Positions 21,938-26,085 of a DNA stretch of 64,000 bases are shown one piece after another. Position numbers and translations under genes: made by a program. Source of the stretch: an uncultured Verrucomicrobiae bacterium (GTDB lineage Bacteria; Verrucomicrobiota; Verrucomicrobiia; Chthoniobacterales; JAFAMB01); assembly GCA_963762565.1 (NCBI GenBank), contig CAVXLD010000001.1, forward strand, positions 448,001 to 512,000, written 5' to 3'. A model generated the notes under the pieces. The model searched no databases. It had not been told where the DNA came from and saw only the letters and a list, made by a program, of their open reading frames with translations. Every line of letters begins with the position of its first letter. Within the stretch, counting starts at the first letter, position 1.

Positions 21938-22660
21938 ATGCGCTTCGCGATTTTCGGCGACATCCACGCAAACTTTGAGGCGTTCGAGGCCGTTCTCGCC
22001 GATGCCAAGCGAGAAAAGTGTGACCGCTTCATTTGCCTGGGGGACGTTGTGGGTTACAACGCAGATCCTCAGGCCTGCCTGGCGATCGTAAGGGAACTTG
22101 ATTGCCCAGTAGTGAAAGGCAACCACGATGAGTACGCCTCCAGCCATTGTTCGCTAGAAACCTTCAACCCGTTGGCAGAATCGGCGATTCGATGGACGCG
22201 GGAGACCCTGACTCCAGCGGAGAAAGAGTTTTTGGGCTCCCTCCCCCTAACGGCCGATGTGGAATCGTTCACGATCGTCCACGCCACCCTGGATAGTCCT
22301 GGGGATTGGGGCTATGTCCTTAATCAACTGGATGCCGCGGCCAGTTTCTCGCGACAAGAGCGGCCGCTTTGCTTCTTCGGTCATACCCATTCCCCGCGCC
22401 TCTTTGTTAAGGACGGATCCGTCGTTGGATTCCCTCTTACTGAGGTCAAGATCGAGCCAAACAAGCAATATTTTATCAACGTCGGAAGCGTTGGTCAGCC
22501 ACGAGACGGGGACTGGCGTGCTGCGTACGCGATCTACGATCTTGGTTCTAAAAAGGTGACCCTTCGCCGTCTCAAGTACGACATAGAGAAAGCTCAGGCG
22601 AAAATCAGAAACGCCGGCCTGCCAGTAAAGCTAGCGGATCGGCTGTTTCTTGGGCGATGA
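21938..22660 (+). CDS. Metallophosphoesterase (calcineurin-like)
   Basis: DIHAN, GDVVG, GNHD, GHTH, NVGSVGQPRDG. Confidence 0.93.
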   Translation: MRFAIFGDIHANFEAFEAVLADAKREKCDRFICLGDVVGYNADPQACLAIVRELDCPVVKGNHDEYASSHCSLETFNPLAESAIRWTRETLTPAEKEFLGSLPLTADVESFTIVHATLDSPGDWGYVLNQLDAAASFSRQERPLCFFGHTHSPRLFVKDGSVVGFPLTEVKIEPNKQYFINVGSVGQPRDGDWRAAYAIYDLGSKKVTLRRLKYDIEKAQAKIRNAGLPVKLADRLFLGR

Positions 22661-23637
22661 CGCCGGATACCATTCTCCTGGTCAAGCCAAGCTCTCTCGG
22701 GGATATCGTCCACACATTACCCGCGCTGAGATTCGTCAAACAGTCGTTCCCGAGAAGTAAAATCTATTGGGTCGCGAACACAGAGTGGAGCCCGCTGCTT
22801 GAAGATAACCCGGACTTGGAAGGCGTTATCCGGTTTCCCCGAAGGAGTTTTCGCGGTCTTAGAGGGGTGATCCGGTTCTGGCAGTGGTGCCAAGAGTTGG
22901 GCAAGCTGCGGGCTGATCTGGTACTCGATTTTCAAGGCCTCTTTCGGAGCGCCTTGATCTCGCGGAGCGCGGGTAGCCGACTGGTATTGGGTTTGGCTGA
23001 CGCGCGGGAGGGAGCTAGATTTTTTTATCAAAAGGCCGCTCCCGTAACGCCGACCCAGCATGCGGTCTTGCGTTATCTGGCTCTGGCCGCGCTCGCCGGC
23101 GCGGATGTCTCCGGTCAAATCGAGTTCACATTACCCCAGGGCCGTCCGATACCAAATTTTGAGCTACCAAATCAGTTTGTCGTCCTTCACCCTTTTTCAA
23201 GGGGAACCGGCAAATCGTTAGGTGAAGCCGAGATTTACCAGTTAACCGCAGCACTGGCTCCCATTCCTGTCATTATCGTTGGGAAGGCTGACTCTCCGAT
23301 CTCCTTTGCTCGGAACGCAGCCTCACTAGTTAACCTAACCGATCTGGAACAGCTAATCTGGCTGCTGCGCAAGGCCGCCTTCGTAATCAGCGTCGATAGC
23401 GGACCAATGCACCTGGCAGCAGCCGTATCGCGCGAGATTCTATCAATCCATTTTTGGAGTGACCCCAGAAAAGTCGGACCATTCCGGCCGGACGCCTGGA
23501 TCTGGCAAGACAACAAGATATTACGTAAGGAAGAGCTGCCCGAAGAGTCACGAGAAGGAGACAGATCGGTGCGGCCGCGTCCGGAGCAGATCGCGTTGTT
23601 CATCCGGGAACGACTTGGAATAGGAGCTAGGAGCTAG
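22657..23637 (+). CDS. Glycosyltransferase family 9 (LPS heptosyltransferase-like)
   Basis: KPSSLGDIVH, DFQGL.RS, DSGPMHLAAA. Confidence 0.92.
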   Translation: MTPDTILLVKPSSLGDIVHTLPALRFVKQSFPRSKIYWVANTEWSPLLEDNPDLEGVIRFPRRSFRGLRGVIRFWQWCQELGKLRADLVLDFQGLFRSALISRSAGSRLVLGLADAREGARFFYQKAAPVTPTQHAVLRYLALAALAGADVSGQIEFTLPQGRPIPNFELPNQFVVLHPFSRGTGKSLGEAEIYQLTAALAPIPVIIVGKADSPISFARNAASLVNLTDLEQLIWLLRKAAFVISVDSGPMHLAAAVSREILSIHFWSDPRKVGPFRPDAWIWQDNKILRKEELPEESREGDRSVRPRPEQIALFIRERLGIGARS

Positions 23638-23726
23638 AATTCAGGAGCCAGGAGGGGCGGTGGGCCCTATCTTGGTAGATGCCATGGTGTTGTCAGGCTG
23701 CCGGATCAACAGCAGCCTGACAAACA

Positions 23727-24833
23727 ATGATTGAATACAAACTCAAGGCGGCACCGACCGCCGTAAGCCAGGAAAAGAACAGCCAAAAGGAAGCGAAGGC
23801 AAACCGGATCGTGCTGGGAGTCGATGCGCACCTAAAGAGCTATCAGGCGGCCCGCAAGATCGATAACGGGGCTGTGGGAGTAGCCCAGACATTCGGGAGC
23901 AAGGAAGCGTTGTTGCTTTACGTTGAGAAGCAGCGAGAGCAAGCCAAGGAAGTGGTGGTGGTCTACGAAGCCGGGCCGCTGGGGTACTCGCTGTATCGGC
24001 AGTTAAAGGCAAGCGGGATTGAGTGCCTGGTCTGTGCACCCCGCAGCGGAGAGCAGAAGAGGAAGCGGGGCAAGAACAACTCAATTGATGCGCGAACCTT
24101 AACCAGTGATCTGAGCAATTATCTCAATGGCAATGAGCAAGCGCTGCAACTGGTCAGAATACCGAGGGAGGCTCAAGAGCAGGCTCGAGTGGAAAGTCGC
24201 CAGCACGATGCGCTGGTGCAAGAACGCCAGCGCATCGGCGTCATGGGCAACTCCCTTTTGCTGAGCCAGGGCTACCAGAGCTGGAGCAATTGGTGGCGGC
24301 CCAAAGCTTTTGAGCACTTAAGCAAGGGGGTGGCGCCTTGGATTGTAAAACATCTTGGTCGCTGGGTTGGGATATTACGCGAGCTAGACCAGCAAATTGA
24401 GCAAGCCAAGGCAGAGCTAACCAAGCAGTACCAAGGCCCACGGCCAAAGGGGATGGGAGCTCCCAGCTTGGCGCAATTGAATGCTGAAGTACTGGATTGG
24501 AATCTTTACTCAACTGAACGCAAGATCGGCTGCTTAGCCGGGATGGTGCCCAGTGAATGGAGCAGCGGAGAGAGCCAACGCTTGGGTGCAATCACCAAAG
24601 TGGGACTACCGGCTCTGCGGCGCATCATCACCGAGATGGTCTGGCGGATGATCCTCTTCCAGCCCGAGTATAAAGCGGTGCAAAAATGGCGTGAGCTACT
24701 GGAGGGCTCTAACCGAGGACTGAAGAAAAAAGCCGTGGTGGCCATCGGCCGGCAACTGATCGTCGATATCTGGCGGCTACAAACCGGTCGTATTACTGCC
24801 CAGCAATTGGGTCTCATCATGATCGAGGGCTAA
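23727..24833 (+). CDS. IS110/IS1111 family recombinase (transposase)
   Basis: GVDAH, YEAG, KNNSIDA RuvC-like motifs; G..PSEWSSG...G.ITK.G catalytic-Ser region. Confidence 0.93.
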   Translation: MIEYKLKAAPTAVSQEKNSQKEAKANRIVLGVDAHLKSYQAARKIDNGAVGVAQTFGSKEALLLYVEKQREQAKEVVVVYEAGPLGYSLYRQLKASGIECLVCAPRSGEQKRKRGKNNSIDARTLTSDLSNYLNGNEQALQLVRIPREAQEQARVESRQHDALVQERQRIGVMGNSLLLSQGYQSWSNWWRPKAFEHLSKGVAPWIVKHLGRWVGILRELDQQIEQAKAELTKQYQGPRPKGMGAPSLAQLNAEVLDWNLYSTERKIGCLAGMVPSEWSSGESQRLGAITKVGLPALRRIITEMVWRMILFQPEYKAVQKWRELLEGSNRGLKKKAVVAIGRQLIVDIWRLQTGRITAQQLGLIMIEG

Positions 24834-24994
24834 AACCATTTTAGAAGTGACCCGAAGACTCGGGTTTTAACTTGGGGCTCTGCCCCAAACCCCGGTTCGG
24901 GGGAAACAGGAGCAAGCTGGCGCCTCTAAAGAGGCCCCATGGTTAAGGGAGAAGCTGACACAGCACTAGACTAAACATTTTAACTCTGGACTTT

Positions 24995-25145
24995 GGAACG
25001 GCGCGCGCTCGTGCTCGCCCCTGGGCTTTAAAAGCCCGTTGGTAGATTGGGCGCGCTCGTTCCTCTTGAGCGATGCGTATAGAGCATCTTGCGCTGTCAA
25101 ACCCTGACAGGCCGGATAGGAGGCTGCCTTGTCCCAATCGAGCTC
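24995..25145 (+). ncRNA. Predicted bridge/seek RNA core (target- and donor-binding loops); transcript ends unknown
   Basis: CTCGCCCC/TTGGTAG flank one hairpin, GCATCT/ATAGGAG flank a second; they match target and circle junction respectively. Confidence 0.8.
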
Positions 25146-25596
25146 GGAGACATGAGCCACAAGAGGAAACGTACCAACCGTCGCAAACCGGCTCGATCTC
25201 TGAACTAAAAATTTTGGCAACTACGTTGCTCTACAAAAGATGACAAACCGCTAAAAACACGCAGGGTAGCTTGACAACACCATAGGGGGGCGAGGCTCCC
25301 GGAGAGCCCTGCGATTCTCCAGGGTGGGTGGCACAAACGCCAAAATACAAATGCGCAAGGCCAAGGAAACGCGCCGAGCCGTACCCACAGTAAACCACGG
25401 CTCGGCGCGCTTTGAAGTGTAGCAACATTCTCCGGAGGTTTAATATTGGACGCTGCGCGATAACTTTGAGTTCTTTCGGGAGCCTCGCCCCACCAAGATA
25501 GGGCCCACCGCCCCCTCCTGGCTCCTAGATTCTAGCTCCTAGCTCCTGTTCTACTTTCCGCTTTAAATAACCCCAGAAGCATCTATCTAACACCAT

Positions 25597-26085
25597 ATGC
25601 CTTCGTTCGACATCGTGTCGGAAGTCGACAAGCAAGAGATCGACAACGCCCTCAACCAAGCTAAGAAAGAGCTGAGTACCCGATTTGACTTCAAGGACAG
25701 CAAAGCCTCGATCGAGCGCACCAGCCCCGACGTGCTTGAACTAACAGCCGAAGATGCCGCCAGATTGCGGTCTTTGATGGAGATCATGGTTGGCAAGCTG
25801 GCTAAACGCGGCGTCGATTTGCGCAACGTCGAACGGAAAGATCCGGCAATTTCCCCCTTAGGGCACGCGCGCCAGGAAATTCATATAAAACAAGGGCTCG
25901 AGGGAGATAAGGCAAAAGAGATCACCAAAGCGATCAAAGCTGAAGGAATAAACGTGCAGTGCCAATTACAGGATCGCCAGATCCGAGTCTCCGGAAAAAA
26001 GAAGGATGATCTGCAGACAGTGATCCAGTTTTTGCGGAAAAAAGATTTCGGCGTAGCGCTGAATTTTAAGAACTTCCGAGATTAG
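25597..26085 (+). CDS. yajQ: YajQ family nucleotide-binding protein
   Basis: MPSFDIVSEVD, RFDFK, RVSGKKKDDLQ, NFRD. Confidence 0.95.
   Translation: MPSFDIVSEVDKQEIDNALNQAKKELSTRFDFKDSKASIERTSPDVLELTAEDAARLRSLMEIMVGKLAKRGVDLRNVERKDPAISPLGHARQEIHIKQGLEGDKAKEITKAIKAEGINVQCQLQDRQIRVSGKKKDDLQTVIQFLRKKDFGVALNFKNFRD

Follow-up and report, generated by a model that had tools for sequence, protein, structure and literature searches.

An IS1111-type insertion sequence of a soil Verrucomicrobiota lineage with a predicted bridge/seek guide RNA at its 3′ non-coding end

The window analysed here, a stretch of 64,000 nucleotides from an uncultured Verrucomicrobiae bacterium, carries an insertion sequence with a long non-coding 3′ end. 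This raises the question of whether that end encodes a guide RNA that directs the element's own recombinase. A first-pass annotation had proposed a bispecific bridge/seek RNA there, programmed both for a host repeat and for the junction of the circularised element. Our analysis supports the proposal, as the guides vary together with the flanks across relatives. We consider it very probable that this is an IS1111-type element whose 3′ non-coding end encodes a bridge/seek guide RNA for its recombinase. By analogy with the published family, the stretch would be transcribed, bound by the recombinase and able to steer the reaction. The features on which the argument rests are listed below in window coordinates, with guides named as in PMC11208160, where the left guide pairs with the bottom strand, the right guide pairs with the top strand and the core lies within each.

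23672..23678, plus strand: left junction, TTGGT (left half of the target) and core AG, identical to the left-target guide at 25039-25045
23677..25288, plus strand: insertion sequence of the IS110 family, IS1111 type, placed by four genomic copies, flank divergence and contig ends
23684..23702, plus strand: left subterminal inverted repeat, 19 nt, 89% complementary to the right arm
23727..24833, plus strand: recombinase gene, 368 aa, with a Tnp domain and a probable RuvC-like domain (Pfam, NCBIfam, profile alignment)
24995..25166, plus strand: predicted bridge/seek RNA of about 170 nt (block conserved across 58 distinct relatives; stem covariation)
24997-25061, plus strand: target-binding stem-loop of the predicted RNA (stem covariation)
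25014..25021, plus strand: predicted right-target guide CUCGCCCC, complement of the top strand GG+GGCGAG at the right junction
25039..25045, plus strand: predicted left-target guide UUGGUAG, equal to the top strand of the left target plus core, which would pair with the bottom strand
25062-25166, plus strand: donor-binding domain of the predicted RNA, with closing stem CCUCUUG/CAAGAGG
25084..25089, plus strand: predicted right-donor guide GCAUCU, complement of AG+ATGC at the left end
25116..25122, plus strand: predicted left-donor guide AUAGGAG, equal to the right end ATAGG plus core AG
25265..25283, plus strand: right subterminal inverted repeat, containing TTGACA at 25271-25276
25287..25294, plus strand: right junction, core GG and GGCGAG (right half of the target), identical in four of four copies
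25484..25496, minus strand: unoccupied 13-nt target TTGGTGGGGCGAG, G variant, on the opposite arm of the same palindromic host repeat

To delimit the element, we searched the 6.1-Mb genome with a 1641-nt query spanning it and aligned the flanks of the copies found. There were four, all reported at 100% identity and each surrounded by the host repeat, and the sequences diverge beyond the limits. Counting one core dinucleotide as element, its length is about 1610 bp. Metagenome contigs of the element end at 23672 and 25297-25301, which are the limits of the shared host repeat. The left junction reads ..TTGGTAG in all four copies, followed by ATGCCATGGTGTTGTCA.. (ATGCC) in three of them, while the right junction reads ..TGACAACACCATAGG-GG-GGCGAGGCTCCC (that is, ..CCATAGG/GG/GGCGAGGCTCCC) in all four, with divergence after it. 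The same right junction was found in 25 of the 26 rows of the window's clade (rows are defined below). The copies thus bear out the junctions that the first-pass annotation had derived independently of the guides. In the fourth copy (L004, G000:C9) the left end is TTGGTAG-AGCT-GTGTTGTCAGG instead of TTGGTAG-ATGCCATG-GTGTTGTCAGG. Because this end mismatches the right-donor guide, the copy may be immobile or may be the outcome of an aberrant event.

Several properties of the element agree with those of IS1111 elements in PMC11187229 and PMC11208160. Only 48 nt of non-coding sequence precede the start codon (23679-23726), against 455 nt 3′ of the stop codon (24834-25288), so the longer non-coding region lies 3′ of the recombinase gene. 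The 19-nt inverted-repeat arms, in which 12 nt are perfect, begin 5 nt in from the left end and stop 3 nt short of the right end; IS1111 elements have subterminal inverted repeats of 7-17 bp or more. Insertion is specific in site and orientation and without target duplication: the four copies and the relatives occupy the same point of their repeat in a single orientation. The element is flanked by ORFs of 326 aa (22657-23637) and 162 aa (25597-26085), which are neighbours in sister species too. No gene is interrupted by the insertion, which is intergenic.

The host repeat is nested, and it occurs in the window at 23624-23678 plus 25287-25310 and at 25470-25545. Its inner unit, ..TTGGT-R-GGGCGAGGCTCC, has about 480 copies, and its outer inverted pair, GGAGCTAGGAGCTAGAAT.CAGGAGCCAGGAGGGG, is present in many copies in the own genome and in the sister species. 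N-GGGCGAGGCTCC has 480 genomic copies; its variable position, with GGT before it in nearly all of them, holds G 243 times, A 229 times, T 5 times and C 3 times. The corresponding 13-mers TTGGTGGGGCGAG (G variant) and TTGGTAGGGCGAG (A variant) have 208 and 119 copies. Excising the element together with one core dinucleotide restores the 13-nt repeat word. The target therefore reads TTGGT-RG-GGCGAG, and the joined ends of an excised element should read ..CCATAGG-core-ATGCC...

We next compared these sequences with the 3′ non-coding end. The four words named in the first-pass annotation are where it had placed them: CTCGCCCC at 25014-25021, TTGGTAG at 25039-25045, GCATCT at 25084-25089 and ATAGGAG at 25116-25122. 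In the 434-nt tail that separates the stop codon from the right inverted repeat, each is present exactly once. When this tail was shuffled 20,000 times with dinucleotides preserved, CTCGCCCC appeared in 1.3%, TTGGTAG in 1.0%, GCATCT in 1.2% and ATAGGAG in 5.2%; both target words appeared together in none, both donor words in 13 and all four in none, which excludes chance for the window itself. The two target guides (8 and 7 nt) overlap on two target positions. They would read opposite strands, share the core and lie in one internal loop of a stem with compensated changes, the arrangement described for seekRNAs. A second predicted loop holds words for the joined ends, with one co-varying position per guide. 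In both loops the complement of the top strand comes first (25014-25021 before 25039-45, and 25084-89 before 25116-22). This is the order of IS1111 seekRNAs and the reverse of the IS110 type as described in PMC11187229 (Siddiquee et al. 2024), where the order stated in the first-pass annotation is indeed given. A search of Rfam at a permissive threshold returned only Ysr251, with an E-value of 0.13 and far under the gathering score, so no family matches.

If the words are guides, they should change with the flanks in homologous elements. Relatives were collected by a protein search of 61 related genomes (E ≤ 1e-30), which gave matches in 13 including the own genome, by a scan of one genome per species (11 loci, mostly from Verrucomicrobiae or Verrucomicrobiota MAGs) and by a scan of metagenome contigs (78 loci, protein identity 51-89%). 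The RNA region was matched by blastn in 94 of 123 loci, and merging identical combinations of site and guide reduced these 94 loci to 81 rows. One locus, L038, lies on a contig of a MAG labelled Solirubrobacterales; its element and flanks are nearly equal to those of L035/L007 of a Verrucomicrobiae MAG, which suggests a mis-binned contig and not inter-phylum transfer.

The right-target guide matched the element's own right flank at eight of eight positions in 55 of the 67 readable rows. The covariation across homologues that had been put forward as a check was thus found for the target guides: there were 12 distinct right-target words, nine of which had at least one perfect flank, as follows.

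guide CUCGCCCC, right flank GGGGCGAG, 25 rows
guide CUCGCCCU, right flank AGGGCGAG, 6 rows
guide UUCGCCCU, right flank AGGGCGAA, 8 rows
guide CACGCCCU, right flank AGGGCGTG, 1 row
guide CCCACUCU, right flank AGAGTGGG, 9 rows
guide CCUACUCU, right flank AGAGTAGG, 1 row
guide CUCUCCCU, right flank AGGGAGAG, 1 row
guide CUCACCCU, right flank AGGGTGAG, 2 rows
guide CCCGUCCC, right flank GGGACGGG, 2 rows

Because the rows are related by descent, independent events are fewer than these counts suggest, and the variety of words is a better guide. Mean identity was 6.95 of 8 across the 19 distinct pairs of guide and flank, a value reached in none of 10,000 permutations of the flanks. The 12 imperfect rows of the 67 match at two to seven of eight positions, and some of them are decayed copies (for example L023 and L036). 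In 65 of 69 rows the left-target guide and the sequence leading up to the element end in the same five bases, GGTAG in 56, GGAAG in 6, GCTAG in 2 and TCCAG in 1; the remaining four rows differ by one base. Further upstream this match is loose, so that effective left recognition comes to about three bases (GGT) plus the core in most insertions. We also built a covariance model (R1) from the 190-nt RNA block, which matched in seven of 151 sampled genomes of the phylum, the own genome included. Two of the six distant hits add to the 67 rows as further cases of guides that vary with the flanking target: in L127, guide CUCCCCUCCU agrees with right flank AGGAGGGGAG at ten of ten positions, and in L128, guide UCUGAAG equals all six visible bases 5′ of the element.

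The predicted RNA also shows conserved structure. The fold of 24985-25150 has a minimum free energy (MFE) of -73.1 kcal/mol and a z-score of -2.7, and stem covariation was read on an alignment of 58 distinct RNAs. In the closing stem of the first domain, one pair is split evenly between G-C (28 sequences) and A-U (28), and a second pair has six double changes; in the hairpin of the loop, one pair is U-A in 22, C-G in 17 and U-G in 13. Both annotated stem strands, GGAACGGCGCGCGC (24995-25008) and GCGCGCTCGTTCC (25051-25063), were found in place, as were the hairpins GGGCT-TTAAA-AGCCC (25023-25037) and CTGTCA/TGACAG (25094-25099 / 25105-25110). The closing stem that the two strands had been taken to form is borne out, but in a slightly different register: covariation supports AACGG/UCGUU plus GCGCGCUCG/UGGGCGCGC, with C25002 bulged and not a U. 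The second domain is closed by CCUCUUG (25062-25068) and CAAGAGG (25160-25166), which become CCUCG/CGAGG in the L012 group. RNAalifold, run on a MAFFT alignment, instead paired CUUU of the 5′ flank with AGAG. We rejected this pairing in favour of the CCUCUUG/CAAGAGG stem with its compensatory change; it arose because the L012 group was misaligned at the 3′ end.

Burial of the guides in stable stems had been named as an observation that would speak against the proposal. The target guides sit on the two strands of the internal loop; MFE folds pair some of their bases with each other, and such pairs are lost where the guides differ. MFE folds pair the left-donor guide with CCUUGUCC, and they pair GCAUC of the right-donor guide with GAUGC at 25072-25076, so this guide is possibly held in a 5-bp stem. 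Two mutually exclusive helices can form around it, GCGUA/UGCGC with the guide in the loop and GAUGC/GCAUC with the guide buried. The share of paired cells is 95.6-95.9% for the two, their covariation is equal, and L127 retains only part of the pairs of each.

This bears on a narrower reading, in which the first domain (24997-25061) is the sole guide, the donor words are chance or structural and the protein reads the element's ends through the subterminal repeats. The published 82-nt ISEc11 seekRNA with target matches sufficed for transposition (PMC11187229), and the right-donor guide is short, variably complementary and maybe stem-buried. GCAUCU (37 rows), GCAUCA (25 rows) and GCAUAA (4 rows) all stand opposite AGATGC, and complementarity across relatives spans just 4-6 nt. 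The donor ends, and the left end in particular, hardly vary, and so offer few independent tests. As read from these rows, the right-donor guide is otherwise weakly constrained. Against the narrower reading, both donor words co-occurred in only 13 of the 20,000 shuffles, and the donor guides do change with the ends, at one position each. Left-donor guide AUAGGAG goes with right end ..CATAGG in 65 rows, but AUAGCAG goes with ..CATAGC in two groups, the L012/L011 group (2 rows) and L125, L127 and L128, so that ATAGG has become ATAGC in guide and end together. The left end is ATGA instead of ATGC in L125-L128, where the first base of the right-donor guide is U and not G. Moreover, the entire second domain is conserved and its closing stem has a compensatory change. 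We therefore regard a sole guide in the first domain as unlikely.

Two further explanations do without a guide RNA altogether. The words might be fragments captured from the host repeat or remnants of old insertion sites, with their likeness to the flanks due to descent and not function. The repeat is abundant, such repeats are often taken up by mobile DNA, and the two target words are merely 17 nt apart. Yet the words are not a contiguous copy of the repeat, as one is reverse-complemented and a conserved hairpin lies between them, and the donor words match the element's own ends and not the repeat. Relatives in unrelated targets (AGAGTGGG, GGGACGGG, GAGGGGAG) bear matching words at the same two positions of the scaffold. 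Such co-variation of guide and flank contradicts capture, which we consider scarcely credible. Alternatively, the conserved block might work as DNA, for instance as internal recombinase-binding sites or a synapsis enhancer. Sequence alone cannot tell DNA-DNA from RNA-DNA pairing, but the compensatory changes between G-C and A-U and the tolerance of G-U in the stems fit a folded single strand, and the homologous region of four IS1111 elements yields an essential RNA that co-purifies with the transposase (PMC11187229). A DNA role instead of a guide RNA thus seems very improbable, though a little less so than capture.

With the two-domain guide RNA as the preferred reading, the element at 23677-25288 inserts into the host repeat ..TTGGT-RG-GGCGAGGCTCC in one orientation and without target duplication. 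Its 3′ non-coding end would give rise to a two-domain structured RNA about 170 nt long. The first, a covariation-supported stem around an internal loop, would hold the target guides, and the second, closed by CCUCUUG/CAAGAGG, would recognise the joined ends of the excised circle. The RNA-bound recombinase would bring the circle junction and the host repeat together and exchange strands at the core.

The recombinase scores 46.4 bits against Pfam PF02371 (Transposase_20; cut-off 21.3), and slightly under the cut-offs of Pfam PF01548 (DEDD_Tnp_IS110, for the N-terminal RuvC-like domain; 28.3 bits, cut-off 29) and NCBIfam NF033542, 'IS110 family RNA-guided transposase' (134.7 bits, cut-off 140). 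A single-sequence search of solved structures gave no match; a profile of the recombinase and its relatives aligns with the IS621 and ISCro4 transposase structures, with an E-value of 3e-6 for IS621 over the Tnp domain. IS1111 transposases are described as having a G--P----S(T)G motif (PMC11187229), and the C-terminal Tnp domain here contains it, with the catalytic Ser, as GMVPSEWSSG, whose G272, P275 and S280 align with GLTPRRYESG of IS621. D33, E81 and D121 are invariant across the alignment with relatives. Asn118 (codon 24078-24080) occupies the profile-aligned position of the first Asp in KTDTVDA of IS621, the third DEDD residue. This Asp is D102, which Hiraizumi et al. count among the residues forming the active site (PMC11208158), and it is replaced by Asn in the entire clade. 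K-x-N-x-x-D was found in 93 locus records of the clade (L007, L011, L012 and L046-L123, same-site duplicates counted) and K-x-D-x-x-D in 11 locus records, comprising distant paralogues, L083 and L129. KTD is present in every one of the distant RNA hits L125-L129. The four identical copies argue for recent mobility despite Asn118, and the Asn-bearing clade nevertheless looks mobile.

The core was another part of the first-pass annotation that needed revision. It had been given as AG, which holds for the left junction; the right junction is GG, so the core is not simply AG. The left junction is AG in all rows and every left-target guide ends in AG. At the right, the junction goes with the two bases at the end of the right-target guide: where the guide ends in CC the right junction is GG (28 of 30 rows), and where it ends in CU the junction is AG (36 of 37). 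The CC-ending guides occur in the window's clade and, independently, in the CCCGUCCC group. In the window's RNA, the left-target guide and both donor guides spell AG and the right-target guide spells GG.

Two models fit these sequences. In model 1, the donor core would be AG and the target core would be GG, chosen by the right-target guide; the crossover would lie before the first core base, with both junctions keeping what lies 3′ of it, and 27 of the 28 guide bases would be Watson-Crick paired. In model 2, the target core would be AG and the donor core GG, with the geometry of IS621, where top-strand cleavage falls 3′ of the core (PMC11208158); this would leave 25 of 28 guide bases paired plus one wobble. 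In two rows, L099 and L080, the guide ends in CC yet the right junction is AG, with a second right-target difference in L080; these rows lean towards model 1. A preprint (10.1101/2025.10.25.684509) proposes that integration proceeds mainly via top-strand transfer, which would make a fixed junction outcome natural under either model. A literature search on junction-specific cores found nothing relevant.

An empty site could have shown the core before insertion, and we sought one at the orthologous locus of five sister species. The gene at this locus was present with 75-85% identity in four of the five, and the fifth gave repeat matches only. At the three loci inspected the inner repeat was absent, so the pre-insertion core is unreadable there. 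The orthologous locus in the sister species has the outer pair only, plus AGTAAGC-type tandem repeats. Contigs of four soil DNA runs contained the element but neither the circle junction nor the empty site; two apparent joints among them proved to be cross-matches between the two arms of the host palindrome. Nor do the A and G variants of the repeat type the occupied sites, as the only positions linked to the variant are the two bases read by the left guide, which confounds such typing.

We tentatively propose, at somewhat less than even probability, that the donor and target cores of this clade differ by one base (AG/GG), that the RNA is programmed for this difference, and that this works with Asn at the position of the third catalytic Asp. 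If so, the right-target guide alone would read the base by which the host repeat's two equally common variants differ. What the fixed outcome would record is either an effective crossover of both strands to one side of the first core base or the transfer of a single strand. Natural insertions would then provide a readout of the geometry of strand exchange for IS1111 elements, in which the guides come in the opposite order to those of IS621.

How does the element compare with known systems? Judged by its sequence, it belongs to the IS1111-type bridge/seek RNA systems that were first described in 2024 and would work as they do. The first-pass annotation had called the recombinase uncharacterised; this is right for the element itself but not for its kind, which is known and common. 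Durrant et al. predicted bridge RNAs in 93% of the IS1111 elements in ISfinder (PMC11208160). By published description (PMC11187229), the element shares with the seekRNA systems of ISEc11, ISPa11, ISKpn4 and ISPst6 the non-coding region 3′ of the gene and the subterminal inverted repeats, the top-strand match 5′ of the bottom-strand match, a long RNA form (145-170 nt in those systems) and the overlap of the guides at the core. It differs from them in its host, a soil Verrucomicrobiota, in the length of its recombinase (368 aa, where PMC11187229 gives 330-350 aa for IS1111 transposases), in Asn for the third catalytic Asp, in having readable donor-matching segments and in a core that differs between the junctions.

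With the IS621 bridge RNA, as described in PMC11208160 and PMC11208158, the predicted RNA has in common two loops, each with its own left and right guide, and a repetitive extragenic palindrome as target. In IS621, by contrast, the RNA is encoded 5′ of the gene, the left guide comes first, the CT core is the same in donor and target, and the inverted repeat is very short; the two recombinases are related at profile level only. ISPpu9 and ISPpu10 of Pseudomonas putida (PMC12288879), the latter also named in PMC11208160, are likewise IS110-family elements that sit in repetitive extragenic palindromes and have the gene of a small RNA downstream of their transposase gene; by their description, host and repeat differ from those of the window.

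Among the papers covered by a literature search, none joined bridge RNA with Verrucomicrobia. The locus offers a clean natural example of RNA-guided recombination, as predicted here, from a soil lineage of this phylum. The nine guide words with perfect right flanks amount to natural reprogramming and form a ready test set for the specificity rules of IS1111-type elements. Small but testable leads on strand exchange come from the fixed AG/GG asymmetry and from an evidently mobile clade having Asn in the place of a catalytic Asp; apart from these leads, the element is an ordinary member of the family described in 2024.

Other signals within the element concern its expression. A promoter scan of 23600-25350 found no sigma-70-like site, and a search for sequencing runs containing the stretch listed no run of RNA. 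A promoter formed at the junction after circularisation was considered and rejected, as the TTGACA of the right repeat would be combined with ATGGTG 17 nt away, a poor -10 box. At 25217-25229, just within the right end, the minus strand reads as a terminator-like hairpin, GCAACGTAGTTGC, with CAAAATTTTT after it; this is kept in relatives as GGCAACTTCGTTGC and could block transcription coming in from the right flank. Between the stop codon and the RNA, at 24845-24905, are three short GC-rich hairpins, ACCCGAAGACTCGGGT, TTGGGGCTCTGCCCCAA and CCCCGGTTCGGGG, which are partially conserved in relatives (86-92% over about 40 nt) and for which a role in processing or attenuation would be a guess.
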